From Candidatus Zixiibacteriota bacterium (GTDB lineage Bacteria > Zixibacteria > MSB-5A5 > SM1-73): a DNA stretch of 64,000 bases. Made by a program: the position numbers and the translations under genes. The notes beneath the pieces are model-generated. The model searched no databases. It saw nothing but the letters and a program-made list of their open reading frames with translations, and was not told the origin of the DNA. Of this stretch, positions 11,084 to 55,521 are shown piece by piece; the first letter of the stretch is position 1; each line of letters starts with the position of its first letter. The stretch covers positions 53,712-117,711 of the forward strand of contig JBAVQU010000015.1 in assembly GCA_049694315.1 (NCBI GenBank). Direction: 5' to 3'.

Positions 11084-13099
11084 TTAGTCTGTCATCTCCA
11101 GTTTTATTCCGGCTAAGACTTTTCTGCCGGGGTTGGGGTAATCCAAATCCGAGATCGAGTTTCCAAACTGGGTGGGAGTGTTATCATCAAAAAGATTATT
11201 CACTTTCAAGAAGAGGGTTAGCCTTTTGATCTTCTGATTAAGATTGACGTCAAGGTTAGCGAAAGACCTGATCTTCTTGGTCACATACCTTATTTCCGGA
11301 TAGAAGGAATAATCCGGATAATAGTTCAGTTTTTCACTGCGGCAATTGAATGCCAGTTGAGCGGAAAACGATGAGAAGATTTTTAGATTCAAATTCACAT
11401 TGAGGCTATTTTCAGGCAGAAAACGTGCCTTTTTTTTCAACTCTTCAAATCTCGTCTCCCCGGAAAAGAAGTCGTCATAGACCAATTCCTTTTTAGTCTC
11501 CTCTCCCCTGTTATAGGAGTAGTTCACCGCAAAATCGAAACGCTTGGAGATTCTGTAGTCCAATTCCAATTCTGCTCCCGAGGAGCTGAACCGATCCAGA
11601 TTGAAAGGCTGCCATAATCCGTTTTGACCTAATGGCTGCCAGGAGATCATGTCTTTCACCTCTCGATAAAAGAAGAAGACCTGAGAAGAGATTTTCCTGC
11701 CGGCAAAAACCAAACCACTTTCAAGACTTCCCCCCTTTTCCGGTCTTAAGTCCTTATTCCCCCCTTCAGGCCAGTAAAGGTCGTTGAAGGTCGGGGCGCG
11801 ATAGGCTTTTCCGTAGTTCAGTTTTAGCGAAAAACCATCGCTCAGATGATAGATCCAGCCTAAGTTCGGAGAGAGCATTTTTTCGAAATTACTGGGCAGG
11901 TCATATCTGGAGCCAAGCTGAAAGGTGAATTTCCCTAAATTCAATGAGAAATTTCCCCAGAGTCCTAAAGTATTGGAATTCGGATTCCAGGAAAAACTCG
12001 AACTGGTCTGTGAGGTCACATAAGAGGATTTCCTTTGGGCTTCAAGGTGGTCTATCGAGAAATCCAGGCCGAAAGTGATTCGGCTTCTCTCCTTGAGCAC
12101 AGAGGAATACTGCATGAATCCGCCCAGGCTCTTGGTCAGGTAAGAGTACACTTCGTCTACTTCTCCGGAGAAATCGTATCTGGTCGAATAGTCCATCCTC
12201 CTTCGGTCAAAGAAAAGTCGGGTTAAGACCTCCCGGGATTTTTCCGCAGATTGGAGATGGAAAGCCAAATCTAGGGAATAGTTCTTATCCTTCTGATGGT
12301 CGAAGAGGGAAGAGACCGAAGAGCTGCCAAACTTCGGGATATTCAAAGGGTCAGGCGCAGGTCCGGGTAGACCTAAATCATCCTTCTGTGTCGACAAGTA
12401 GAGTTTCAGATCGGCGTTGGAAGTGAAGCGATAAAGAAGGGTCGAATGAGAGAATAAGGCTGAATAATCCGAGTTTTCTCTGTTGCCGCCAGTCTGCTTT
12501 CTTTCCAGACCCGAGTCAAACCTGAGATTCTTGATTCCTGAGGCAAAATCCAGAGTGGAGATTACAGTTTTCTCATCCCCATATAGAATGGAAGAGGAGA
12601 GGCTGTTTCTCAAGGGAAGAGTGGGAATCAGGTTGACCACCCCACCCAAGGCATTGGCTCCGTACAGAGAGGAAAGAGGACCACGGACGATCTCCACTTT
12701 TTCCAGATTACCCAACGAGAAGTCGCTTAAGTTGAAAATGCCGTTGGTGAGGTAGTTCAACCTTCTCCCGTCTAACAAGAACAACACCTGTGAAGAGGAG
12801 CAACCTCTCAGACTGAGAGTCTGCACCTGGCCTAAGGAGCCGGAAGAGTTCATTTCTGCGCAGGAGAAATTCCGTAGAGCCTCACCCAAAGAGAGAGAAT
12901 TGAAGCTCTTTAGCTTGGAGTAAGCCAGTAGAGTGGAATGCGTGGGAATATTCTTAAGATGCTCCGGATACCGGGTAGCAGTCACAAAGACGGGCTCACC
13001 CAAATAGATTCTTCCGGTGGTGGAGAGTTCAGATGTTTCCTCCGCCCGTGCTCCAATCGCGAGAAGCAAACCGAGACACAGAACAAAGACCTGTCTCAT
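11084..13099 (-). CDS. TonB-dependent outer-membrane receptor
   Basis: Signal peptide, plug-domain motifs (VEIVRGPLSSLYGANALGGVVNLI) and a long beta-barrel region, 671 aa. Confidence 0.8.
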   Translation of the reverse strand: MRQVFVLCLGLLLAIGARAEETSELSTTGRIYLGEPVFVTATRYPEHLKNIPTHSTLLAYSKLKSFNSLSLGEALRNFSCAEMNSSGSLGQVQTLSLRGCSSSQVLFLLDGRRLNYLTNGIFNLSDFSLGNLEKVEIVRGPLSSLYGANALGGVVNLIPTLPLRNSLSSSILYGDEKTVISTLDFASGIKNLRFDSGLERKQTGGNRENSDYSALFSHSTLLYRFTSNADLKLYLSTQKDDLGLPGPAPDPLNIPKFGSSSVSSLFDHQKDKNYSLDLAFHLQSAEKSREVLTRLFFDRRRMDYSTRYDFSGEVDEVYSYLTKSLGGFMQYSSVLKERSRITFGLDFSIDHLEAQRKSSYVTSQTSSSFSWNPNSNTLGLWGNFSLNLGKFTFQLGSRYDLPSNFEKMLSPNLGWIYHLSDGFSLKLNYGKAYRAPTFNDLYWPEGGNKDLRPEKGGSLESGLVFAGRKISSQVFFFYREVKDMISWQPLGQNGLWQPFNLDRFSSSGAELELDYRISKRFDFAVNYSYNRGEETKKELVYDDFFSGETRFEELKKKARFLPENSLNVNLNLKIFSSFSAQLAFNCRSEKLNYYPDYSFYPEIRYVTKKIRSFANLDVNLNQKIKRLTLFLKVNNLFDDNTPTQFGNSISDLDYPNPGRKVLAGIKLEMTD

Positions 13100-13873
13100 T
13101 TCTCACTCCTTAGTTTTAAGGGTTCAAAGACTCAGAAGTTCAAATGCCATAAGAACAATACTGCGCGAAAAAAACAAAACCCAGCTTCACGGCGAAGCTG
13201 GGTGAAATGCTATTTCCCAAAGACCTCTTCCCGCGAAGAGCAATGGAATATGAGTGTTAGGGCAATTCACGAATTGCCCCACCGTTAGACCTAATTCCTA
13301 AATCAAGCCTAACTTACACGAATTCGATTTGATCGGTCTCCTGACTTTATGGCTTCGAACCTACTCGCTTCCCTTCCCGTCCCCCGGTTGGTTATTGGTT
13401 CGTGGTTCATGGTTCGTGGTTAAAAGCTTTCACCACGAACTACGAACTCCGAGCCACCAACCATCCCGCCTTCGGCGGAATAGAACAGTGGTTATTGAAG
13501 CTTTCGTAGCCACTTACAGTAGCGGGGCTGTGGCGGATTTTCACCGCCTTCCCTTTACCCCATTTGGGGCATCAAATCGCTGTTGGTTTTGTCAGAGATC
13601 AAATTCAACTACATTATGTCTGATCCAATATTTGAAGTCAAGAGAAAAACCATTTTCTTCTCAGGTCGTGGCGTCTTTTTCTGTCATCCTGAGGGAATCC
13701 CGCCTTTTGCAGGACCAAAGGTGAAACGTAAACCGTCCCTTCTTGGTCAAGCTGAAGCTTGACACTCCAAAAACCTTTCCTTGTTTACCTCTGAGAGCTC
13801 CTTTTGTAGTTGCCCAATTCATTGGGCGATTTTCCACTCGATAAGCAGACGCTCCCGTCCGGGAATCGAACAA

Positions 13874-15394: not shown

Positions 15395-17923
15395 TCACAC
15401 CACTGCCTTTTCCAACTTCGCTTTGTCCGCTTCCAGCTTGGCTCTTCTTTTTTCTCCTTTGAATTTGAGATCCGCCAGCGCTTTCTTGGTAAACTCTACC
15501 TCCTCTTTTGTGACTCTCTTCCTCATCTCCTCAACTTCTTTCATCACCTTAGCGAACTTCTGTCCTTCTGCCGCGCTGATCCACTCCAGTTGAAGTCTTT
15601 CCGGTCTTATTCCCATCTTCTCTAATTTATCCCACAGCTTCTCTACTCTTTTCACTGTCCAGCGATTCGCATCGATATAATGGCAATCCGCAAAATGACA
15701 GCCGGAAACCAAAACTATGGGAGCTCCCAGCTTGAAAGCATAGAGCACGAATTCCTCATCCACCCTGCCGGAACACATGGTTTTGATGATCCTCTGATTG
15801 GGAGGATACTGCAAACGGGATATTCCAGCCATGTCCCCTCCTGCATAGGAGCACCAGTTGCAGGCAAACACCACCGTCTTATCCTGAGGATTCTCGTCTA
15901 AGATGGCCTCTATCTGAGCGAGGATTTGGCTGTCCTTGAAGTGTCGCATGGTGACCGCGCCAAAAGGACACTCTGCTCCGCAAGTGCCGCATCCGGCACA
16001 CGCGGCTTCGATGATCTCCGCCGGTGTCTTCTTCTCCCGATCCACCAGGATACACTTGTAGGGACAGGCCCGATAACAGATCTCACAGGCAGTGCACATC
16101 TCCTTGTCCACCATTGAGGTTATCGCCTCTACCTTGATTCGATCTGCATTCAGGATGATCTCCGATCGGGCGGCAGCAGCGCCCGCTTGGGTAACGCTGT
16201 CCTTAACGTCCTTGGGGAATTCTGCACAACCCGCGTAGAAAACCCCTTTGGTGGGTGCATCCACCGGCTTTAGCTTGGGATGAGACTCCATGTAAAATCC
16301 ATCCGGGGTGCGAGAGAGGGTCAAAAGCTTCTGGATGGTGCTCCCGTCCAGTCGGGGCAAGACGCCTACGGAGAGCACCAGCATCTCCAATTCATGCTGT
16401 TCCACCTCACCGGTGGTGGTGTTCTCCACGGTGACGATCAGGTTTTTGGTCTTCGGATCCTCCATCACCTCTCCGGGCAAGCCGCGGATGTACTTGACTC
16501 CCTCCTCTTTGCTTCTCCGGTAGAGATCCTCAAACGCTTTCCCGAAGGCCCGGATATCCATGTAGAAAACTTTGATTTCGGTATCAGGATAATGGTCTTT
16601 CAAAAGGACTGAGTCCTTTATGGTGTTCATGCAGCAGATATTGCTGCAATAGCGATTGCCCCTTTTTTCGGACCTGGATCCCACACACTGAATGAACCCA
16701 ATGGTCTTGGGCGTTTTTTGATCAGCCGGACGGATGAAATGCCCCTGTGTGGCACCGCTGGCACAAATCAGGCGCTCAAATTCCATGGAGGTGATCACAT
16801 TCTCGAAGCTCCGATAGCCGTATTCATCCAGCTCCGTGGGATCATAAACATCCATTCCTGTCGCTACAATGATAGCTCCTACCTTCAGATCAATCATCTC
16901 ATCTTGCATGTCGTAGTCGATGCACTTTTTCTCACACACCTCCGAGCATTTGCCACAGGCAATGGGGTTGTTTCCTAGACAGGCATTCATGTCGATCAAA
17001 TAGGCAGAAGGGACCGCTTGAGGAAGCTGCAAGTAAATGGCTTTCCGAGAGGAAAAACCCTGTTGGAAACCATCTGGAACCGCCACCGGGCAGACCTTAG
17101 CGCATTCTCCACAGGAATTACAGTCCTTCTCCCTCACGTAGCGTGCTTTCCTTCTGACCTTCACTTCGAAATTGCCGACATAACCTTTAACCTCTTCCAC
17201 CTCGCTATAAGCCAAGAGCTTTACTCTGGGATGTCGACCGACATCCATCATTTTCGGTCCCAGAATTCATATGCTGCAATCCATGGTGGGATAGGTCTTG
17301 TCCAAAGCCGCCATGATGCCGCCGATGGATGGTTCCTTCTCCACCAGATAGACCTGAATGCCAGCATCCGCTAAGTCTAAAGAGGCTTGAATTCCCGCCA
17401 CTCCCCCACCAACGACTAATGCTGCTTTTGTAACAGGAACCGTCTTTTCGATCTGCGGCTCCAAGTATCTGACCCTGGCTACTCCCACCTTCACCATGTC
17501 CTTGGCCTTTTCTGTAGCACCCTTGCGGTCATGCAAATGTACCCAGCTGCAGTGCTCTCTTAGGTTCACCATCTCCAAGAGGTAGGGATTCACTCCCACG
17601 TCGGCCACACACGCTCGGAAGGTCGGCTCGTGCATACGAGGAGAGCAGGAAGCTACCACCACCCGATTGAGGTTGTGCTCCTTGATATACCGCTTGATCT
17701 CATTCTGTCCCGGATCAGCGCAGGTGTATTTGTTCAGAACCGACACCGCCACATCCGGCAGGGTCTCGGCGTACTTACGCACCGCCTCGCAGTCCAGCGA
17801 TCCGGCGATGTTCAAGCCGCATTCGCAGACAAACACCCCGATTCTTAGATCATTTTCCTTTCCTGGTGTTTTCTTGTCAGCCACCACATTCACCTCCTGG
17901 GCTTTGATACAAGAGCAAGTCAA
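15395..17923 (-). CDS. hdrA: Heterodisulfide reductase subunit A fused to a C-terminal MvhD domain. Selenoprotein with an in-frame TGA at 17267-17269.
   Basis: The track ORFs 17267..17923 and 15395..17251 share one frame and are separated only by the TGA. Read-through gives ...DKTYPTMDCSI-U-ILGPKMMDVGRHPRV..., the HdrA C-S-x-C/U motif. FAD motif [16 protein letters not shown]. Ferredoxin-type Cys clusters. The C-terminus [14 protein letters not shown]...SGCHFADCHY is an MvhD domain. Confidence 0.8.
17226..17263 (-). promoter_or_regulatory. Candidate bacterial SECIS hairpin downstream of the hdrA UGA
   Basis: mRNA CUGGGACCGAAAAUGAUGGAUGUCGGUCGACAUCCCAG, with apical hairpin GGAUGUC-GGUC-GACAUCC starting about 23 nt after the UGA. 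Confidence 0.55.
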
Positions 17924-18481: not shown

Positions 18482-18575
18482 TCCTCACTCCTTCATTATA
18501 TTCATTATGAAAGTACCCGATTGCAACTTCTTGCGGTGACGGAGAAGTCATCCATTGTCACCAAACACTTCATGT

Positions 18576-18704
18576 CATCGCCCCAGCAAACAACGTGCTC
18601 AAATCGACAATTCTTAGTCTTAACTCCTCTGAATAGCCCTCGGCGTTCTGGGTGCAGGAGAAATGAATCTGGCATTTTGGACAGGCGGTGACCCAAACCA
18701 CTGC
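18576..18704. repeat. Direct repeat copy 1 (pseudo 3' end of the hdrD-like gene)
   Basis: About 129 bp at roughly 94% identity to 19276-19404, which are the last ~43 codons of the CDS at 19270..20400. Confidence 0.7.
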
Positions 18705-18724: not shown

Positions 18725-18934
18725 TTATTTGTGTGCAGTTGTAGATTGGTAATGAGCCACAAGCTCTCGAACTTTAGAGATAAGTTTGTTGGGAACCTCA
18801 ATGAAGGTTTGTCCCTTCTCCTCGAAAGCCGCTTCGTCTTCTGCCACCGCCTCTTCTTCAGTTTGTTGCTCGTAATGAGCTATCACCCGTCGAACGCGCT
18901 CTTCATCCCAACCTGGTGGAAATTTGCTCTTCAT
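18725..18934 (-). CDS. BrnA-like antitoxin (type II TA)
   Basis: 69 aa, acidic, downstream of and overlapping the DUF497-like toxin gene by 4 nt. That arrangement is typical of BrnT/BrnA. Confidence 0.45.
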   Translation of the reverse strand: MKSKFPPGWDEERVRRVIAHYEQQTEEEAVAEDEAAFEEKGQTFIEVPNKLISKVRELVAHYQSTTAHK

Positions 18935-19218
18935 CTCCTGAATCTCCTTCGTCTACGTCTTCTATACGCCATCAATGGTTTCCCTTTTAATTCGTACGCC
19001 GTTATGACGAATACGCTATCCGGCTCTGGATCTGGAACATAAACAACCCTAAGATATCGACCTGATTTAGTCTGCCCAATTGCTACACGTGAACCCTCAC
19101 GACCGGCCCGATCCTCACCCGACTTCATTAGGACTTCCTCAACTTCATTTTCTATGACTCCATGTTTATAAAAATGAGGCTGTCGTGTTTCTGGATCAAT
19201 ATAATAGCGTATTTGCAT
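18931..19218 (-). CDS. BrnT-like toxin (DUF497 family)
   Basis: 95 aa: MQIRYYIDPETRQPHFYKHGV..EVEEVL...RVAIGQTKSGRYLRVVYVPDPEPDSVFVITAYELKG, the DUF497 pattern. Confidence 0.5.
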   Translation of the reverse strand: MQIRYYIDPETRQPHFYKHGVIENEVEEVLMKSGEDRAGREGSRVAIGQTKSGRYLRVVYVPDPEPDSVFVITAYELKGKPLMAYRRRRRRRFRR

Positions 19219-19269
19219 AATCTTCCGTGATCAAGACGTCCTCGAAAACAACCTCAGTCATGCCCTTAT

Positions 19270-20400
19270 TTATGTTATCGCCCCGGCAAACAACGTGCTC
19301 AAGTCGACGATTCTTAGTTTTAAGTCCTCTGAATAGCCCTCGGCGTTCTGGGTGCAGGAGAAATGAATCTGGCATTTTGGACAGGCGGTGACCAAAACCT
19401 CTGCTTGGGTATTCTTTGCCTCCTTCAGCCGATTCGTCTGAATCATCTTGGAATAGACATCACAGTTCACCCAGGAAGAGGTTCCGCAGCAGGTGGCATT
19501 CTTTCTGTTTCTGGGCATCTCCACCAGCTCCGCCCCGGAAGCCTTGATCACTTCTCTGGGTGCGTCAAACACGCCACTGAACCGCCCCAACCTACAAGGG
19601 TCTTGATACGTAACCTTGGTATCCAGTTTCTTCAGCTTGGTCCTGTCTTTTGGGATCTTCTCGGAGATCAGCTCCGATATGTGAAGGACTTCATAGTCTT
19701 GCTTTCCGAACATCTCCGGATAGTCGAATTTCAGGCTGACCAGGCATTCGGGACACGAGGTGACGATCTTTTTCGCCCCGGATTCTTTTATCAGCTTCAG
19801 ATTGTGTTCTGCCAGCTTTTTGAAGTTCTCCACGTCCCCCATCCACAGAAGATCATGCCCGCAACACCTTTCGTTGGCCAACACCTGTGGCTGGATGCCC
19901 AAGAAGTTCAGAATCTTCAGAGTCGACTTTCCCGATTCGATGGAGTTTGCTTTGATGTCCGTGAAGAAAACGTCGAAATAAGGGAGGCATCCGACAAAAT
20001 AAAGATATTCGGACTTCTCTGACGTCTTCAGATCCGGGGTGATCCATCCTAATCTATTTTGTTTCAGCTCAGGTGCGGTCATGATTTTCATCAATGACTG
20101 CAGGGCCCCGCCATGAGAGCACTTGGCGTCTTGCCCGTTGTTACTGGCTTCAGCTCTGACTAACCGGGTGAACTGGATGTAATCAATGTCGGAAGGGCAT
20201 TTCTGCTGGCACTGCATGCAGGTCAAGCAGGTCCAGACCGTATTATCTTTCAGCAGATTTTCATTGGAGCCGGTCACCGCCTTGGTCATAAGTCTTCGCG
20301 GAGAATAGCCCTTATTAACTCTGGAGATAGGGCAGATGGCAGTACATTTGCCGCAGTCTAAACAGAGATAAGCTTTGGTGTTCTTGATGGATTCTTTCAT
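19270..20400 (-). CDS. HdrD/GlcF-like iron-sulfur oxidoreductase (two 4Fe-4S motifs plus two CCG domains)
   Basis: CLDCGKCTAICP and CLTCMQCQQKCP, then CCGHD...C and ...CCGTSSW cysteine-rich CCG-type motifs. Confidence 0.7.
   Translation of the reverse strand: MKESIKNTKAYLCLDCGKCTAICPISRVNKGYSPRRLMTKAVTGSNENLLKDNTVWTCLTCMQCQQKCPSDIDYIQFTRLVRAEASNNGQDAKCSHGGALQSLMKIMTAPELKQNRLGWITPDLKTSEKSEYLYFVGCLPYFDVFFTDIKANSIESGKSTLKILNFLGIQPQVLANERCCGHDLLWMGDVENFKKLAEHNLKLIKESGAKKIVTSCPECLVSLKFDYPEMFGKQDYEVLHISELISEKIPKDRTKLKKLDTKVTYQDPCRLGRFSGVFDAPREVIKASGAELVEMPRNRKNATCCGTSSWVNCDVYSKMIQTNRLKEAKNTQAEVLVTACPKCQIHFSCTQNAEGYSEDLKLRIVDLSTLFAGAIT
19276..19404. repeat. Direct repeat copy 2 (authentic 3' end of the hdrD-like gene)
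   Basis: Partner of 18576-18704. The two copies bracket the 571-bp segment that carries the BrnT/BrnA pair. Confidence 0.7.
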
Positions 20401-20508: not shown

Positions 20509-20952
20509 TCATTTTGCATTTTGAATTTTGAATTGTCTCAACGGGCTTGGTCCCACTTTCTTCACATCCTCTATGAATTGCGTGATCACCTGGGCAAATC
20601 TTTGACCTTCAGCGGCTGAAAACCACTCCAATCTCAACCGCTCCTTTTCTAAACCCAGAAGCTCGAAGAGCTTTTTGGTGATTTCGAACTGCTCCGCAGC
20701 TCGATGATTGCCAAAGGTGTAATGGCAATCGCCGAAATGTCACCCCGACCACATCACGCCGTCTGCACCTTTTTCAAATGCTCGGAATACGTGGGCTGGG
20801 CTGATCCTGCCGGAACACATCACGCGGATGAGCCTTACATTTGGTGGATATTGCATCCGGCCCACCCCGGCAGTATCTGCTCCTGCGTACGAGCACCAGT
20901 TGCAAGCGAAGACGACGACTCGGGGATCAAAATCATTCGATTGTTTTGTCAT
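20509..20952 (-). CDS. mvhD: Methyl-viologen-reducing hydrogenase delta subunit homologue (MvhD). Selenoprotein with an in-frame TGA at 20740-20742.
   Basis: Read-through of the track ORF 20740..20952 gives [17 protein letters not shown]...[18 protein letters not shown]...[13 protein letters not shown]. This aligns residue for residue with the MvhD domain of the hdrA fusion in this window (VLVSG-C-HFADCHY), with the UGA at the Cys position. Stop TGA at 20509-20511. Confidence 0.7.
20706..20730 (-). promoter_or_regulatory. Candidate SECIS hairpin downstream of the mvhD UGA
   Basis: mRNA GAUUGCCA-uuacaccuu-UGGCAAUC, an 8-bp stem starting about 11 nt after the UGA. Confidence 0.45.
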
Positions 20953-21066: not shown

Positions 21067-22050
21067 TTATAAGAAGGCAACCGTTTTATTCAAACCTAAA
21101 TAGTTAAGTTCGTCTTGTGTAAAGGAATCCAAATTACTGAAGACTAATTCAACGAATTCATCACCATCTACAAAAGATATCTTCTTACACTCTTCCCTAT
21201 AGTATTTCTCAGCTAACTTCTTTGCGTCATCCGAAATACTACCCGACGTTACGATAATCCCCGTATCCCCTTCATCCATTGAATTTGCTAATTGCTCCAC
21301 TACCCAACTATCAAGGGCTCCATGCTCGGGATAAAAATGCTTAACTTGTATTCTAACAACAAGGTTCCCAGGTAGAGTTGTTTTTAGATCAGTGTCTCCT
21401 TGCTGGCTGTTTGTAGTTGCCAACCTTGTGAGACCAGGAAAGTACCTATTGAGAACAGTTCTTACGCTTTCCTCAAACCTGGATGAGTTGACGCCCGACA
21501 GTATCCCCTTTTGTAACTTGTCAAGATACTCTATTTTCAGATCTAGATAGTTTTGACAGCTGAACAAGTGCTTTTGGGTTTTGACAATATCGCTTATATC
21601 TTGATGATAAGTGGCAAAAAGCGTTTGTTGTCCTTTCAAAGAATCAAAAACTCGTCCAGTTAAGACCGACCGGGGAATGGCGCGTTTTTCATTCAGCCAT
21701 TCAACTTCTCGTTGATGTGGATAACCATCCGTATCATTGTCTTTGGAATTATCGTATCGATAATCGCTTTGTACATATCCAACAAATACAACTGGCCCAT
21801 CAGGAACCACAACATAATCTTCAATTTGCATTTCATTTACAAAGCGGTTAATAATGCCAACAGCTTGCCCTAAGGATTGATTAGAAGAATACGAATAAAA
21901 CGTTTGCAAAGCCTGTTTGATTTGCTCTCTGTTTTTTCCTACTAGATTCCCTATGTAGGGCCAACCAATTGCCACCAAGTTCCCCACCAAGAATTCTTTC
22001 ATTCTATATTTATCGTGTGGATAAGATCGTAATACCCAAGCATTACTCAT
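21067..22050 (-). CDS. Mrr-like restriction endonuclease-domain protein (type IV restriction-like) with an uncharacterised N-terminal domain
   Basis: The C-terminal region GDTDLKTT...VVRIQVKHF...DTGIIVTSGSISDDAKKLAE matches the Mrr catalytic-domain pattern (D...(Q/E)xK, IvTts.fs..A). The gene sits in a clearly AT-rich island. Confidence 0.5.
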   Translation of the reverse strand: MSNAWVLRSYPHDKYRMKEFLVGNLVAIGWPYIGNLVGKNREQIKQALQTFYSYSSNQSLGQAVGIINRFVNEMQIEDYVVVPDGPVVFVGYVQSDYRYDNSKDNDTDGYPHQREVEWLNEKRAIPRSVLTGRVFDSLKGQQTLFATYHQDISDIVKTQKHLFSCQNYLDLKIEYLDKLQKGILSGVNSSRFEESVRTVLNRYFPGLTRLATTNSQQGDTDLKTTLPGNLVVRIQVKHFYPEHGALDSWVVEQLANSMDEGDTGIIVTSGSISDDAKKLAEKYYREECKKISFVDGDEFVELVFSNLDSFTQDELNYLGLNKTVAFL

Positions 22051-22129: not shown

Positions 22130-25100
22130 TTATTTATCCCAAACCAACAGCGTATCTATCATCACATCTATCTGCTCATCTGTGAAGTGGCGAGCTGTTA
22201 TTGCACCGGTGGGGCAGTATGCCGCGCAGGTGCCGCAGCCTTTGCACAAAGCTTCGTTAATCTCACAGACCAAAACGCCTTCTCCCTTATCTACCAATTG
22301 TGGCGCGTTAAATTGGCATATCTTCACACATATTCCGCAGGCTCGACACAGTTCTCTATTTACCACTTGACAGACCACCGGCTCAAGCTCGATGTGATCT
22401 CTGGACGTAAGGATAGCTGCTTTGCCCGCTGCTCCCTGGGCGGAGAACAGACTATCTGATATTCCCTTGGGGGAATGTGCACACCCACAGATGAATATCC
22501 CCGCGGTATTCGTCTCCACCGGTCCCAACTTGGAGTGCCTCTCCAAGAAAAATCCATCCAATCCCCTTGGAACCTTGAGAAGACTCTGAAGCTCGGCAAA
22601 ATCTTTCTCTTTCGGCACCATGCCCACGGAGAGTATCACCGCATCCACTGGCAGTTCCGTCTCGGCTTTGGAATGAGGCTGAAATAGCTTGATCTTGGTC
22701 GCTTTTCTGTCTCCAATTATCTCCGGCGGATGCTTCTCATCGTATCTTAAGAACAAAACCCCTGCACCTCGCGCCTCCCGATATGCCTCTTCCGCACCCT
22801 TGTCGAAAGTCCTGATGTCCCTGCAGTACACTATAACGTTGATTTCCTTTTTCTGAAGCTCGGTAGCTTGTTTGATGGCTACCTGACAGCAATATCGGGA
22901 GCAGTATTCGTTTCCGCCTTTCTCCCTTGATCCCACGCACTGGATGAAAGCAACGTTCTCCGGCTTCTGGTTGTTGATCTTCAACTCCTCCTGGTTCTCT
23001 GTCATCAGCTTTTCCAATTCCATGTTAGTGAGAACATTGGGGAATTGTCCATGGCCGAATCTGCCTTGGGGATCAAAAAGATCCGAGCCGACCGCCAGGA
23101 TGATGGCTCCGAACTTCAGCACCCCATTCTTGGTCTTCTTGCCCTTGGCGGATGCGGGCATCTCTAAAGTCACCTCAAAATTGCCGACAAACCCGCTTAC
23201 TTCCTTCACCTTAGAGGAAGTGAGCACCTTGACTTTTCTCTCCTTCAGCTCTTCTAATTTCTGTTTGATCAGCTGCTTACCCGTCAGCTCACTCCCCAAA
23301 AGACTACCCAGATCCTTTACCCTTCCACCCAACTCCTTGTCCTTATCGATCAAAGTCACTTTCTCGCCTTTGAGCGCCAAATCTAAGGCCGCCTGAATTC
23401 CCGCTATGCCGCCGCCGATTATCAAGATCTCTGGATTCATGGGGACCTGCCTTCTCTCCAAAGGCTCCAGATGATAAGCTCTGGCAACCGCCATGCGCAA
23501 AAGGTCTTTTGCCTTTGTAGTTGCCGCCTCTGGCTCCTGGGAGTGCACCCAGGAGCACTGGTCCCGGATGTTAGCCATCTCAAAGAGATATGGATTGAGG
23601 CCGGCTCTCTTGCAGGTTTCCTGAAAGATGGGCTCGTGCGTGCGGGGAGTGCAGGCCGCCACCACCACCCGGTTCAAGTTTTGTTCCTTGATCTTTTCCG
23701 CCATGAATCTCTGAGTTCCATCCGAGCACATAAAAAGGTCGCGACAGACATAGGTCACTCCGGGAAGCGACTTGGCATATTCCTCCACCTCTGCCACGTT
23801 CACCACTCCAGCGATGTTGATCCCGCAATGGCAGACGAATACTCCGATCCTCGGGTCTCCGCTTACGTCCAGAGGTTCGACTTTGATCGGCTCTTTCTTC
23901 AATTGCTGACCTTTCAGATGCTCTGAAACCTTCAACGCGGCGGCGGAACCCAAGGCTACTGAGTCGGTGATGTCTTTAAGTCCGGCAGCGCTGCCACAAA
24001 GATAAATCCCGTCTTTAGTCGACTCCATAAAGGAGGTGGAATCTCCCTGCTTGAAGAAGCCGGTTTTGTCCAGCTCGATTCCCAAAATCTGCGCCAGTTT
24101 GGCCGTCCCCTCAGCCGGGACTCCGGCAGACGACAGAATCACGATATCCGCTCTCACTTTCTCCACGGCCTTGGTATCCATGTTCTCAATGAAGAGCAAG
24201 AGGTCCTTGGTTTTTGGATCCTCTTCGATCTTGGCCGGCTTTCCCCTGTAAAATATGACATTCGGATCCTGCTGTGCCCGCAGGTACAACTCCTCGTATC
24301 CTTTGCCGAAAGCTCTTATGTCGTTGTAAAAGATGTAGATCTTCTCGATGTCCGGTTGATGCACTTTAGCTAAAAGCGAATTCTTGACGGTGTTCATGCA
24401 GCAGAAGTACGAGCAATAAGGATATCCTCTGTCGCCTACTGATCTGGAGCCGACGCACTGGACAAAAGCCAGAGTCTTGGGGGGTTTCATGTCGGCAGGA
24501 CGGACCAGGTGACCACCTGAAGGCCCGGAGGCATTCAGAATTCTTTCGAATTCGAGTCCGGTCAGAACGTTCTCGTAACGAGCGTAGCCAAAATTGGTCA
24601 GGCTTCGTGGATCGTACTCGTCGAAACCGGTGGCAACTACGATGGCACCGACGTCAACCGTCTCCTCCCTAGGCGGCATGTCGAAATCAATGCACTTGAG
24701 TTTGCAGGCCCGGTAGCAGTTTTCGCACACCAGGATGGTCTTGTTAAGGCAGGCTTCACGATCAATCACATAGGTTCGGGGGGATGCTTGAGGGAAAGGA
24801 GTATAGATGGCTTTTCTGGCTCCCATTCCTAAGTCGAAAGAGTTGGGAGCAATCACCGGACAAGCCTTGGCGCAATCACCGCATCCCACGCAGGCGTTCT
24901 CGTCCACAAAGCGGGGGTTTCGTCTAACCGTGGCCTTGAAATTCCCCTTTTCCCCTTCCACCCGGACCACTTCAGAATGGCTTAAAAGCTTTACATTGGG
25001 ATGTCGACCGACATCCAGCATGCGGGGACCCAGAATTCAGATGGCGCAATCCATGCTGGGAAAGGTTTTGTCGATCTGCGCCATCCTACCCCCCAGGGTG

Positions 25101-25207
25101 GAAGCCCTCTCCACCAAATAAACCTGAAAGTCGGCGTCGGCTAAATCGAGGGCCGCCTGAATTCCAGCCACCCCTCCTCCGATGACCAATGCACCTTTCT
25201 TTGTCAA
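22130..25207 (-). CDS. hdrA: Tandem-domain HdrA homologue (two HdrA-like modules). Selenoprotein with an in-frame TGA at 25037-25039.
   Basis: Extending the 963-aa track ORF upstream in frame gives (V/L)[74 protein letters not shown].... An AGGAGG RBS and a GTG/TTG start lie at about 25205-25210. There is a second FAD/ferredoxin module ([18 protein letters not shown]...) and a C-terminal ferredoxin motif. Confidence 0.75.
24999..25016 (-). promoter_or_regulatory. Candidate SECIS hairpin downstream of the second hdrA UGA
   Basis: The same 18 nt, GGAUGUCGGUCGACAUCC, as in the first hdrA, about 21 nt after the UGA. Confidence 0.55.
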
Positions 25208-32607: not shown

Positions 32608-33878
32608 GGAGACATGGGTAACGGGTGTTTGGGGACATGGGTAACACCATTATATTATACCCAAGGATCCTTTTTCTTTCAAGTTAATATGTGTAATCTT
32701 TTGTTTGCAGTAAAAGAGGTCCATAACTCCGTCCTCCTGTGGTCTGGGTCGGAGAGCCACGGGTTCTCCTCTAAAGGCTTTAGATATCTTATACTTGCCT
32801 CCCTTGAAAGAGATAAGTCCACCTGCCTGTACCTTACGCACTATATCATCTGGGGCATACTGTATCTCTTCAAGATTTTCTTTGAACGGACGCTGGCTGA
32901 CTTGATAAAGGCTGGCTGGTACCTCCATGTTCAGCGCTTCATGTGGCCTTTCACAGTTGTATACCATACGCCACTGGTCAAAACGACGCTGAGATTCTGC
33001 TCTCCTCCAGGGTATGCTTTCCCCCAAAAGCTCAGCTTTCAGTGTCTTATGGAAGCGCTCATCCTTGCCCAGAGTCTGAGGATGGTAGGGACGAGAATGA
33101 GAAATCAAGATGCCCACACGGATAAGCCATACGGTCAATGGGGTATAGATATGTTTTTCATCAGAACCCCAGGGGGAACCATTATCCATCAGCATCTGAT
33201 AAGGCAACCCATATTGTCGGAAAACCCCAATCAAGCACCCCTTCACCGTCTCTTTGGTTTCATCCTCACATGCTTTCAGAGCAATAACGTATCGGGAGTG
33301 ATCATCCAGCAGAGTAAGGGGATGACAGCGACCTTCGGGACAGGGAAGGTGTCCCTTAAAATCCATTTGCCAAAGCTCATTGGGAGCCGATCTTTGAAAT
33401 CGAACCAAGGGTTTGTGTTTCCCAGATTCCTCCGGAGTGATGCAATCCCCTCGCTTCAGGATGGCAGTGATGGTGCTGGGGAGGGGAACAGATTGGTAGC
33501 CCATATTCTCCAGACGACGTTTGATCTTGCGACCTCCCCAGGCGGGATGTTGTTGACGGACCATCAAAACTGCTTGCTCCATCTGCTGGGGCGTCTTGCT
33601 TGGGCTGTTGAGGGGTCGCCTAGATTGATCCAGCAGACCATCCTCACCATAATCAAGAAAACGTTTAATCCACTTATAACCCGTCTTGCGGCTGATGGCA
33701 AATCGGCGGCACAGACGACTAAAGTTACAGACATTACTTTTGGTTGCCAGAAAGACAAACTCTTTCTTAAGAGACATAACGCTTACCTCTTTCCAGGGTA
33801 TAATACCCTCCTTTCCAAGTTGGGTATTATACCTCAAAGTGTAACCTATGTCTCCGAACATGTGCTACCTATGTCCCC
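32608..33878 (-). mobile_element. IS481-family insertion sequence (~1.27 kb) with ~40-bp imperfect terminal inverted repeats
   Basis: Left end GGAGACATGGGTAACGGGTGTTTGGGGACATGGGTAACACC and right end (reverse complement) GGGGACATAGGTAGCACATGTTCGGAGACATAGGTTACACC. Inner TATAATACCC-type inverted repeats. A single DDE transposase ORF lies inside. Confidence 0.7.
32650..33861 (-). CDS. IS481-family transposase (rve integrase-core DDE)
   Basis: N-terminal HTH, then WQMDFKGHL...LLDDHSRY...MDNGSPW...HSRPYHPQTLGKDERFHKTLK, the integrase-core pattern of IS481-like transposases. Confidence 0.8.
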   Translation of the reverse strand: MFGDIGYTLRYNTQLGKEGIIPWKEVSVMSLKKEFVFLATKSNVCNFSRLCRRFAISRKTGYKWIKRFLDYGEDGLLDQSRRPLNSPSKTPQQMEQAVLMVRQQHPAWGGRKIKRRLENMGYQSVPLPSTITAILKRGDCITPEESGKHKPLVRFQRSAPNELWQMDFKGHLPCPEGRCHPLTLLDDHSRYVIALKACEDETKETVKGCLIGVFRQYGLPYQMLMDNGSPWGSDEKHIYTPLTVWLIRVGILISHSRPYHPQTLGKDERFHKTLKAELLGESIPWRRAESQRRFDQWRMVYNCERPHEALNMEVPASLYQVSQRPFKENLEEIQYAPDDIVRKVQAGGLISFKGGKYKISKAFRGEPVALRPRPQEDGVMDLFYCKQKITHINLKEKGSLGII

Positions 33879-50640: not shown

Positions 50641-51888
50641 CTATAGTTTGATGCGGAAAAGATTCACAATGAAGTCCAGATGGAAACTCGCGGCCAATGT
50701 CCCTAGAATCAAGGAGATCATGATCAAAATCTTCCCCCAATCCTGGGCTTTGATGGCGCCCAAAAGCAGAGGTTCTTTCCCCAAATATGCGGACGCGGCG
50801 TAAAGCTCCTCACCTATCAAGGTGTAATCCGTAGCCGCCACGAAGAAGGGAATTTGAGCTACTTGATCGGTTCCCGAAATCTGAATGGATCCGGCGACGT
50901 TTCCGGTCTCGGCCAAAAGCAGGGATTCGGCATAGAAGACCCCCATATAGATATTGGTGGCCGTTTTTTGTCGGAGCATCAACCCATTGACCGCAGAGAC
51001 GTAGGCAAATTGCATGGAGGTTAGATAAAAGACCGAATCCTCCTTGTAGGCATCGGGTCGGCCAGCCTCGAAATATCCCGTTCTGACCGCTTCCTGTGCC
51101 ACGGTCAACACCACTGGGTCCGACACCGGAACCAAAAGAGGAGTCTGATATTCCGCGGTTTTCTTGGCCACCCGACTTAAGATGGTCAGCGAGGCGATAG
51201 TCCCCAGATCTCCAGCGCTCCCCATACCCAGGATGTAGAGGATGGGTCTTCCCATCTCAGTCGCCCGGCCGATGGCATCGTCTATCGCATCTATTCCGGC
51301 GATGGGTCGAACATAGAGTTCTTTCCCCTTTTTGGCGTGCCGGATGAAGACCAGCACAAAGAGGGTGAATAAGAAGGTGGATATGAAAATAGAGGTCTTG
51401 CCGGTATGAAACCACTGGCCAAATGCATAAGCTGGGGCGGAGACATTCGATTCGGATAAAGAGATTGCACTTTTTGCTTTGATCTTGTAATAGAAGTTTT
51501 TGTGGCTGGGGAAATAGTTTTTGTCCTCCTTTTCCCTTGCACCTCGATCTAAGTACTGGTTGGTTCCCGCCGCTACCACCCCGCGAGATACAAAACCGGT
51601 ATCGGGATTGTCTGACCTCAGTATTTCATAAGAGAGTACATTATTCTTTCCTGCTCCATCATCCGCCGACAGTTTCCACCTGACCATGATAGCATGCCCA
51701 TTATCATTGGGAGCATCTTTTGCCACCACATCCATGGCAGGAGCAGGAGCTTGAGCAAAAGAATCGGGTATAGCTATAGCGTGTCCTAGTTCTTGAGCCG
51801 ATGAGATTTGCAACCCAATAAGGAAAAAGGAAAACAAAAGAAGGAAAATCAGAGAGATCTTGTTTCGAAAAACAAATCTGTCTTTCAT
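50641..51888 (-). CDS. Cassette B, gene 1 (family 1 paralogue, long form with an N-terminal FN3/Ig-like domain)
   Basis: Signal peptide, then a beta-sandwich-like segment (IMVRWKLSADDGAGKNNVLSYEILRSDNPDTGF...YYKIKAKS), then the conserved family-1 core. Confidence 0.55.
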   Translation of the reverse strand: MKDRFVFRNKISLIFLLLFSFFLIGLQISSAQELGHAIAIPDSFAQAPAPAMDVVAKDAPNDNGHAIMVRWKLSADDGAGKNNVLSYEILRSDNPDTGFVSRGVVAAGTNQYLDRGAREKEDKNYFPSHKNFYYKIKAKSAISLSESNVSAPAYAFGQWFHTGKTSIFISTFLFTLFVLVFIRHAKKGKELYVRPIAGIDAIDDAIGRATEMGRPILYILGMGSAGDLGTIASLTILSRVAKKTAEYQTPLLVPVSDPVVLTVAQEAVRTGYFEAGRPDAYKEDSVFYLTSMQFAYVSAVNGLMLRQKTATNIYMGVFYAESLLLAETGNVAGSIQISGTDQVAQIPFFVAATDYTLIGEELYAASAYLGKEPLLLGAIKAQDWGKILIMISLILGTLAASFHLDFIVNLFRIKL

Positions 51889-54270: not shown

Positions 54271-55521
54271 TCATATTCCTTTGAAAAGCTCCCTTACGTC
54301 GGGAAGGTTCAATCCCAAAACCGAATTGAGCGTAAGCAAGATTGCGCCAACCAAGATCGCCAAAAGAAAGATAAACTTCCCTACGTCTTGTCCTTTTAGG
54401 CTTCCCAAAAGCTTAGGATCCTTGGAAAGATAGGCGGAAGCAGCAAAAAGCTCCTCTCCGATCAATGTATAATCGCAGGCGGCAACGAAAAAGGGAAGCT
54501 GGGTGACCATGGCAGTCCCGGCGATTTGGATGGCTCCTACGGAGTTGGCGGTTTCAGCCAAGATTAGGGACTCGGCGTAAAACTGTCCTTGTAGAAATAC
54601 CGCCGCCGGTCTTTCTCTTAAGAAAAGCCCATCTAAAGCCGCAGCGTAAGCAAACTGATCATTGGTGACGTAATAAACCATGTTATCATTGTAAGCATCC
54701 GGTCTTCCGGCGTTAAGGTATGCTTCTTTCACTACTTCTCTACAGGTGACCATCACCAATGACGTACAGACCGGAACTTCCAGCTTCGCCTCATACTCCG
54801 CCGCCAGCTTCGCCACCCTTCCTAAGATGGTAACACCAGCGATGGTCTGTATGCTGTCCATATCCATGATGCCAGGCACGAAGATTATTTTTCTGCCCAT
54901 CTCGGTCGCCCGTCCCACCGCATCATCCACTGCCTCCAGACCAGCGATCTTGCGGATAAAAACTCCCTTGCCCGATTTGGCTTTCTCTATGAAGTAAAAA
55001 ATGGCAAGCCCGATCACCAAGGAGAGGATAAAAAGGCTTAATCGGCTGAAATCGAACCACTGTCTCTTGGCAAAGGCGGGAGCGCTGGAGAGTGACTCGG
55101 ATGCGCCAGTTGGGGAAATCGCTCTGATCTTGTAAAAATATAGCACCTTGTTCTTAGCCGCGTTATCCGAGAAGGAAGTGGCGCCTGGTGCCGCGTTTCC
55201 TATGACTTCGTAGCCCTCATCTTTTCTGGTGGATCGGAGGATTTCGTACTTGGTAACGTTCTTCGTCCCCCCTCCGTCGTCGGCTGATTTTCCCCAACTC
55301 ACGGAGATCGCTCCGCCCTTGTCGTTGGGAATGTCCTTGGCCACCACATTGGTGGCCGGAGCAGGCGGAGCCTGAATCACCGCCGGGCTTTCAGCTTGAG
55401 CCACAGGATTTTGTTCTGCCCCTGAGGCAAGGGGGACAAAGAGAAAGAGGATGCTGGGGAAAAGGACCCACAGGAGCAATCTGGCTTTTAATCGAGCTGA
55501 ACAGCGATGCGTTCTGATCAC
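54271..55521 (-). CDS. Cassette C, gene 1 (family 1 paralogue, long form with an FN3/Ig-like domain)
   Basis: ISVSWGKSADDGGGTKNVTKYEILRSTRKDEGYEV...FYKIRAIS, then the family-1 core (FIRKIAGLEAVDDAVGRATEMGRKIIFV...). Confidence 0.55.
   Translation of the reverse strand: MIRTHRCSARLKARLLLWVLFPSILFLFVPLASGAEQNPVAQAESPAVIQAPPAPATNVVAKDIPNDKGGAISVSWGKSADDGGGTKNVTKYEILRSTRKDEGYEVIGNAAPGATSFSDNAAKNKVLYFYKIRAISPTGASESLSSAPAFAKRQWFDFSRLSLFILSLVIGLAIFYFIEKAKSGKGVFIRKIAGLEAVDDAVGRATEMGRKIIFVPGIMDMDSIQTIAGVTILGRVAKLAAEYEAKLEVPVCTSLVMVTCREVVKEAYLNAGRPDAYNDNMVYYVTNDQFAYAAALDGLFLRERPAAVFLQGQFYAESLILAETANSVGAIQIAGTAMVTQLPFFVAACDYTLIGEELFAASAYLSKDPKLLGSLKGQDVGKFIFLLAILVGAILLTLNSVLGLNLPDVRELFKGI

Follow-up and report, generated by a model that had tools for sequence, protein, structure and literature searches.

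Hairpins downstream of in-frame UGA codons in two hdrA-like genes of a Candidatus Zixiibacteriota bacterium are probable bacterial SECIS elements

Bacterial gene clusters that encode selenocysteine (Sec)-containing HdrA, FrhD/MvhD and GlpC were known by 2006 at the latest (Zhang et al. 2006, PMC1794560), and among bacterial selenoprotein families HdrA, with its CxxU motif, is well established (PMC1794560; PMC13188914). The Sec insertion sequence (SECIS) of bacteria belongs to a class generally described as poorly conserved (PMC1242214). Its consensus, bSECIS (bSECISearch model of Zhang and Gladyshev 2005, summarised in the 2026 review PMC13188914), describes an upper stem of 4-16 bp that carries a loop of 3-9 nt. 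One or both of the first two loop bases must be G (in most cases G followed by G or U), the loop must lie 16-37 nt from the UGA, and the minimum free energy (MFE) must be -7.5 kcal/mol or lower. In the SECIS of Escherichia coli fdhF, SelB is reported to bind at U17 and G23, and G23 and U24 are given as the conserved bases of the apical loop (PMC8659212). Archaeal selenoprotein genes contain no remnants of bacterial-type SECIS elements (PMC1794560). Here we analyze a stretch of 64,000 nt (the window) from contig JBAVQU010000015.1 (GCA_049694315.1) of a Candidatus Zixiibacteriota bacterium, in which two hdrA-like genes, each interrupted by an in-frame UGA, carry an identical 18-nt hairpin shortly after this codon; all positions given below are window coordinates. 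On the basis of comparative sequence analysis, we consider it highly probable that both hairpins are SelB-binding bacterial SECIS elements that recode the upstream UGA as Sec. They are, in that sense, an expected feature of a known selenoprotein family, acting by a mechanism that is well known and not new.

The positions of the two genes, of their UGA codons and of the hairpins are given in Table 1. The product of copy 1 matched the NCBIfam model NF040770 (HdrA2) with 1188.6 bits, against a cutoff of 1100, and its C-terminal FlpD/MvhD domain was recognized with an E value of 2e-45. Copy 2 reached 1063.4 bits with the same model in three stretches, slightly under the cutoff, and is therefore referred to as HdrA-like and not as a strict family member. 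The likely start codons are a GTG at 17887 for copy 1, with AGGAGG just before it, and a TTG at 25207 for copy 2, with GGAGG just before it. Past the UGA, the reading frame stays open for 623 codons in copy 1 and for 968 codons in copy 2. In both genes the UGA closes a CxxU motif (C-S-I-U and C-A-I-U, respectively), and its position aligns with Cys197, at the end of the CSIC motif, of the solved HdrA 5ODC_A, as well as with TGY in 67 Cys-form homologues.

The window genes thus agree with the described Sec-HdrA family (NF040770, CxxU) in protein family, Sec position and CxxU motif. The known Sec-type hdrA genes of Syntrophobacter and Desulfotalea are likewise present in several copies per genome and clustered with mvhD/frhD and glpC-like genes, as in the window. 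Copy 2, in contrast, departs from the typical Sec-HdrA in being a rearranged double-HdrA form of ~1025 aa that scores under the NF040770 cutoff. A further difference concerns the archaeal Sec-HdrA genes, whose SECIS elements are located in untranslated regions, whereas the elements proposed here lie in frame within the coding sequence. The window is of bacterial origin, carrying a TonB-dependent receptor gene with a cobalamin riboswitch and multihaem cytochromes, and the bacterial rule therefore applies, according to which the SECIS is located in the coding sequence right after the UGA.

The window contains the 18-mer GGATGTCGGTCGACATCC at exactly two sites, both on the minus strand; in RNA sense it reads GGAUGUC (stem), GGUC (loop) and GACAUCC (stem) in both hdrA copies. 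When up to three mismatches were allowed on both strands, four matches were found against 0.06 expected, a number that none of 100 shuffles equalled; each hairpin site also matches GGATGTCGGTCGACATCC on the plus strand with two mismatches. In both copies there are 20 nt between the UGA and the first stem base (stem from +21) and 27 nt between the UGA and the loop. The minus-strand context is ATG GAT TGC AGC ATA TGA ATT CTG GGA CCG AAA ATG ATG GAT GTC GGT CGA CAT CCC AGA in copy 1, where the peptide around Sec is MDCSI-U-ILGPKMMDVGRHPRVK, and ATG GAT TGC GCC ATC TGA ATT CTG GGT CCC CGC ATG CTG GAT GTC GGT CGA CAT CCC AAT in copy 2. The hairpin thereby consists of the last base of a Met codon followed by GAT GTC GGT CGA CAT CC, which encodes (M)-D-V-G-R-H-P. 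The paralogues are 64% identical over 456 aligned nt and use the identical codon at 45 of 90 degenerate codons for the same amino acid, and the longest identical run between them (21 nt, UGGAUGUCGGUCGACAUCCCA) lies exactly on the hairpin. The original prediction, made from the window alone, had claimed one and the same 18-nt hairpin with a 7-bp stem and a GGUC loop 21-23 nt past the UGA of both hdrA genes, the second copy being at 24999-25016 with its strand unstated, and had pointed to identical DVGRHP codons amid divergent flanks; all of this was confirmed.

Folded in isolation, the hairpin forms 7 bp closed by a GGUC tetraloop, with -10.2 kcal/mol in both copies. In copy 1, however, the MFE structure of the whole 60-66 nt after the UGA favours an alternative pairing, AUUCUGGGA/UCCCAGAGU, over the hairpin. 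When the first 12 nt after the UGA were left out of the fold, the hairpin was the MFE structure in both copies; these 12 nt would sit within the ribosome while the UGA occupies the A site.

The main evidence comes from homologues with and without Sec. A genome scan with one genome per species, in which the 152-aa segment around Sec was used as the query, yielded 80 homologous loci, whose phylum-level labels include Zixibacteria, Calditrichota, Ignavibacteria, Chloroflexota classes, Planctomycetota, Acidobacteriota, Gemmatimonadota, KSB1, Armatimonadota and several deltaproteobacterial groups. The motif could be located in 79 of these loci, with TGA at the Sec position in 70 and TGY in 9. A metagenome scan with the copy-2 sequence contributed 21 close orthologues, each of which has TGA, as well as 58 Cys forms that are more distantly related. 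The set compared comprised 93 Sec (UGA) forms, including both window copies, and 67 Cys forms.

Within the hairpin, the codons of the Sec forms are almost completely fixed. The Asp codon is GAT in 92/93 Sec forms versus 33/66 Cys forms, the codon of the loop Gly (+10) is GGT in 93/93 versus 8/66, and the His codon is CAT in 93/93 versus 28/67; Val is encoded by GTC in all 46 Sec forms that have it and Ala by GCC in all 47, whereas the Cys forms use every Val and Ala codon. Fisher p values for these Sec versus Cys contrasts range from 1e-14 to 4e-35, uncorrected for relatedness. The loop reads GGTC in 90 Sec forms and GGTA in the other three, and is variable in the Cys forms, with GGTC in two. 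Seven stem pairs are formed in 75 Sec forms and six in 18, compared to two to six in the Cys forms; the mean MFE of the 18-mer is -9.9 kcal/mol versus -1.9 kcal/mol, and when the 66 nt from the UGA onwards are folded, the MFE structure contains the hairpin in 83/93 Sec forms versus 1/67 Cys forms. No insertion or deletion between the UGA and the hairpin was observed among the 93 Sec forms, so that the spacing is constant. As for the copy-2 paralogue, all 21 metagenomic orthologues have both the UGA and the hairpin, the latter as GTC..CGA or GCC..CGG.

It is important to mention that the exact D-[V/A]-G-R-H-P peptide is present in 49/67 Cys forms, and since these nevertheless vary their codons (GAC/GAT, GGC/GGA/GGT/GGG, AGA/AGG/CGN and CAC/CAT are all in use), the peptide alone does not fix the codons of the hairpin. 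An internal control was provided by another Gly codon, located at +3, seven codons before the one in the loop: in the Sec forms it is GGT in 29, GGC in 23, GGG in 21 and GGA in 20 (entropy 1.99 bits). As this codon is free while Gly +10 is GGT in every Sec form, relatedness and codon bias are ruled out as explanations. The suggestion that the constraint acts on RNA structure and not on the protein only is accordingly upheld by synonymous sites that are frozen in the UGA forms alone; free variation of these sites with Sec retained, which had been set beforehand as the refuting test, was found in 0/93.

One Cys form deserves a separate remark. In Desulfobulbus rhabdoformis DSM 8777 (locus L047:2157-2222), the Sec position is occupied by TGT, and the sequence GAT GTG GGA CGA CAT CC downstream still allows 6/7 stem pairs. 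Judging from this sequence, the hairpin is probably a decaying SECIS relic left after Sec-to-Cys conversion. SECIS remnants have been described in selenoprotein genes of other families that reverted to Cys (PMC1794560).

Support for pairing itself was obtained from stem pair 6:13, which joins the middle base of the Val/Ala codon with the third base of the Arg codon. Among the 93 Sec forms this pair is C:G in 46, U:A in 39, U:G in seven and C:A in one. Val GUC is thus coupled to Arg CGA, and Ala GCC to Arg CGG, a pattern in which the Val/Ala replacement is compensated by a synonymous Arg change two codons away. Both states are found in both paralogue clades. A neighbour-joining tree computed from ~415 nt of flanking sequence, with the hairpin positions masked, requires at least ~12 switches between U:A and C:G, a rough figure because the tree is short and noisy. 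The loci L039 (GTC..CGA) and L048 (GCC..CGG) differ by only one other base in 66 nt. That U:G (seven) outnumbers C:A (one) is consistent with pairing in the sense-strand RNA and speaks against both a DNA palindrome and an antisense element. The remaining six pairs are invariant, or changed only through loss of the terminal pair, and are structurally uninformative. Their conservation at codon positions that are free to vary nevertheless points to constraint.

Compared with known elements, the hdrA hairpin agrees with the bSECIS consensus in all four structural criteria (a 4-nt loop on 7 bp; a loop that starts with GG; a distance of 27 nt between UGA and loop; the free energy given above). It likewise lies in the coding region shortly after the Sec-UGA, and no structural difference from the consensus was noted; it is, by comparison with bacterial SECIS elements in general, unusually invariant. 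For a comparison with E. coli fdhF, a 46-mer with its SECIS was searched and found in 5419/5426 E. coli genomes at an identity of at least 95% (at least 99% in 5413/5420 records); in the three matches listed it is located under fdhF, and its fold has a GGUC tetraloop and a bulged U. The original prediction had named a GGUC-type loop for this element, and E. coli genomes and fold agree. The apical tetraloop of the 17-nt minimal fdhF hairpin, GGUUGCAGGUCUGCACC, is identical to that of hdrA, and the fdhF element is also located in frame in the coding sequence downstream of the UGA.

Several observations weigh against the interpretation of the hdrA hairpins as SECIS elements. The upper stem of fdhF has a bulged U (U17) that is essential for E. 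coli SelB, whereas this bulge is absent from both hdrA copies, where the 7 bp are perfect, and from every orthologue. The hairpin base lies 20 nt after the UGA in hdrA versus 11 nt in fdhF, and the loop is 9 nt further away (+27 vs +18). Moreover, fdhF has a stem-loop of ~40 nt that starts right at the UGA, while hdrA has no conserved lower helix; RNAalifold across the orthologues predicted only the hairpin of 6-7 bp and no helix back to the UGA. Modest z-scores were also obtained when the sequences were folded singly (26-mers, -1.5 and -2.9; 60-mers, -1.8 and -0.6), and 4/7 stem pairs never vary and alone are silent on structure. In the databases, Rfam release 15 gave no SECIS-type match in the whole window at the gathering score, and a search of the two 121-nt hairpin regions at E <= 10 gave chance matches only (RAGATH-26, WT1-AS_5, GEBRO). 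Finally, a tRNA search of the 64-kb window found none, hence no selC in the window, and a Pfam scan of 29 window open reading frames (ORFs) and of the mvhD read-through product described below found no Sel protein (selA, selB, selD). Considered by analogy, the hdrA element would seem to work like the fdhF element, yet it is not of the E. coli subtype.

A lower helix resembling that of fdhF, which is seen in the MFE structure of copy 1, was considered separately and rejected: it is paired in only 65% of cells across the orthologues, and the two pairs in it that never vary are dictated by Ile codons.

The alternative explanations were weighed against the same data. If the identity of the two copies merely reflected conservation of the DVGRHP protein sequence together with codon-usage bias, with an accidental hairpin, one could point to DVGRHP/DAGRHP being conserved in Sec and Cys forms alike and to the stem pairs that do not vary; we nevertheless find this extremely improbable, as Cys forms with the same peptide vary their codons and reach 2-6 pairs only, the Sec forms use four synonyms for Gly +3 with a single one for Gly +10, and codon bias cannot explain why GTC is joined to CGA and GCC to CGG. 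No more credible is the idea that the identical 18-21 nt go back to recent gene conversion or have remained from a recent duplication. The position of the longest paralogue-identical run exactly on the hairpin is what such an event could leave, but 91 other Sec-form genes, which carry more than 12 phylum-level labels and belong to both paralogue clades, keep the sequence, the flanks share only 64% identity, and conversion does not produce a link to the UGA. The near-palindromic sequence, from which a hairpin is possible on both strands, could also be an element acting at the DNA level (an imperfect palindrome for a dimeric protein) or from the opposite strand (an antisense RNA hairpin), and a DNA palindrome would be preserved by covariation too. 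This is very unlikely, given that U:G is tolerated only in the sense RNA, being equivalent to C:A in the antisense, that the element is present strictly together with an in-frame UGA at a constant distance of 20 nt, and that the invariant GGUC loop is asymmetric.

The last alternative concerns a hairpin that is linked to Sec and yet independent of SelB, namely a roadblock that pauses the ribosome at the UGA or hinders release factor 2, while SelB reads something else. The spacing and the missing bulged U, which depart from the E. coli paradigm, speak for it, as does the different-looking structure downstream of the UGA in the mvhD gene of the window. On the other hand, GGU is invariant in 93/93 Sec forms, including the free third position of Gly, whereas a pure stability element would tolerate changes in the loop; and this loop is that of fdhF, which carries the reported SelB determinant G23. 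Ribosome footprint sizes place a hairpin base 20 nt past the A-site codon outside the ribosome, where it would be poorly placed for pausing. We regard such a roadblock as unlikely.

The interpretation as SelB-binding SECIS elements, which the original prediction had put forward as a resemblance, is supported by the Sec/Cys contrast, the covariation, the agreement with the consensus and the fdhF-like loop; SelB binding, the nucleotide contacts and selenium incorporation are what we infer from these. In the proposed mechanism, the 18 nt encoding (M)-D-V-G-R-H-P would fold in the mRNA into the 7-bp stem with the GGUC tetraloop, to which SelB, carrying GTP and Sec-tRNA(Sec), would bind through its C-terminal winged-helix domain, with the G and U of the loop as the main determinants, as in E. 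coli fdhF. The tethered SelB complex would reach the A site once the ribosome meets the UGA 27 nt upstream of the loop, and the UGA would be decoded as Sec at the position of Cys197 of the solved HdrA structures. The ribosome would then melt the hairpin and translate stem and loop as normal codons. From the presence of three UGA-interrupted genes within 10 kb, we infer, indirectly, that the host decodes Sec.

Table 1. Positions of the hdrA and mvhD genes, their in-frame UGA codons and the predicted SECIS hairpins in the window.
Feature	Position	Strand	Description
hdrA-mvhD fusion (HdrA2 type), copy 1	15395..17887	minus	reads through UGA; NF040770 and C-terminal FlpD/MvhD domain
In-frame UGA, hdrA copy 1	17267..17269	minus	Sec codon, residue 207 from GTG; motif MDCSIU
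Predicted SECIS hairpin, hdrA copy 1	17229..17246	minus	7 bp, -10.2 kcal/mol; conservation and covariation
Large (~1025 aa) HdrA-like gene, copy 2	22130..25207	minus	rearranged, duplicated; Sec in first FAD domain
In-frame UGA, hdrA copy 2	25037..25039	minus	Sec codon, residue 57 from TTG; motif MDCAIU
Predicted SECIS hairpin, hdrA copy 2	24999..25016	minus	18 nt identical to copy 1
Standalone mvhD/flpD, third selenoprotein gene	~20952..20509; UGA 20742..20740	minus	in-frame UGA

The third of these genes, a standalone mvhD, was found by scanning the window for ORFs split by an in-frame UGA, and it was the only further real case. Its read-through product matches Pfam FlpD over the full length (1-123/123, E 4e-53). 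Two hairpins are predicted downstream of its UGA. Hairpin 1, GAUUGCCA-UUACACCUU-UGGCAAUC, starts 9 nt after the UGA, with its loop 17 nt after the UGA, and this loop, UUACACCUU, has 9 nt without any G; hairpin 2, UCGAGCUGC-GGA-GCAGUUCGA, has 9 bp and a GGA triloop 44 nt after the UGA. Neither of the two is a clean match to the bSECIS consensus. In 160 hdrA loci, the 128 MvhD motifs are without exception Cys forms, and Sec-type orthologues of mvhD were taken, via their contigs, from the many truncated proteins of 65-75 aa in the public collection. These orthologues have a hairpin over the C-H-Y-x-x-G-N codons, with UGY or GGA loops 20-23 nt after the UGA, which is canonical. The closest relative of the window gene (L161) also has a G-less first loop of 9 nt and a second hairpin, and in the slightly more distant L183 and L184 the second hairpin is kept while the first loop contains a G; the second hairpin is shared only with these three close relatives, the comparators being few. 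The mvhD gene of the window may use a non-canonical arrangement, in which the hairpin at the usual place has no G in its loop and a second hairpin carries a GGA triloop at 44 nt. If the second hairpin were the SECIS, its spacing would be outside the accepted 16-37 nt.

In unrelated contigs, an hdrA-like gene of ~1009 aa is located directly upstream of Sec-type mvhD, and several of these contigs also have a glpC-like (CCG-domain) gene downstream. In the window, an ORF similar to restriction endonucleases (Mrr_cat; 21067-22050, minus strand) lies between the large hdrA-like gene and mvhD. Because mvhD directly follows the ~1009-aa hdrA-like gene in the unrelated contigs, this ORF was probably inserted into the operon.

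A more far-reaching proposal combines the two cases. The SECIS elements of hdrA may form one ultra-conserved class, GAUGYC-GGUC-GRCAUC fixed at +21, that is common to two old paralogue clades and more than 12 bacterial phyla, together with a non-canonical SECIS in mvhD; taken jointly, we hold this only as a tentative and rather doubtful possibility. If a single class existed for hdrA, RNA pairing would dictate the choice between Val and Ala together with the Arg codon, and all these lineages would share a SelB that reads GGUC.

The recognition of a GGUC loop by SelB, as the sequence comparison suggests, may be conserved well beyond Enterobacteria; the established picture of bacterial Sec decoding is left unchanged. 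The hdrA stem offers a natural example of RNA structure constraining a protein, in which the swap between Val and Ala is tolerated only with a synonymous change two codons away. In practical terms, standard gene callers will split or truncate both hdrA and mvhD at the UGA, and in the public protein collection many mvhD fragments of 65-75 aa indeed end at the Sec position. The pattern UGA-N20-GGAUGYCGGUCGRCAUCC, which is simple and highly specific, could mark Sec-type hdrA genes in metagenomes, and since no Rfam family matched, the motif could seed a covariance model.

The window was also scanned for other hairpins with a GGUN loop, at least 5 bp and a UGA 16-37 nt upstream. The sole other GGUN hairpin of at least 6 bp on the gene-sense strand has its TGA out of frame and was discarded, and the remaining matches were judged to be chance occurrences, a judgement made without a frame check of each.

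Some further features of the window were noted. A direct repeat of 136 nt (18569-18704 and 19269-19404, 93% identical and 700 bp apart) is the duplicated 3' end of a glpC/hdrD-like gene (19270..20400, minus strand). The 700 bp between the repeats contain two small minus-strand ORFs, 18931..19218 (DUF4258) and 18725..18934. This arrangement resembles a cassette of the toxin-antitoxin type whose insertion duplicated the end of the gene. The cobalamin riboswitch mentioned above is located at 13314-13591 on the minus strand (Rfam RF00174, 85 bits, E 1e-19), upstream of the TonB-dependent receptor gene (11084..13099). Two paralogous minus-strand ORFs of ~415 aa, 50641-51888 and 54271-55521, match DUF6754 with E values of 8e-115 and 4e-122, respectively, and look like parts of a tandemly duplicated gene block. 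An ORF for an IS481-type transposase, with rve, HTH_32 and LZ_Tnp_IS481 domains, is located at 32650-33861 on the minus strand.

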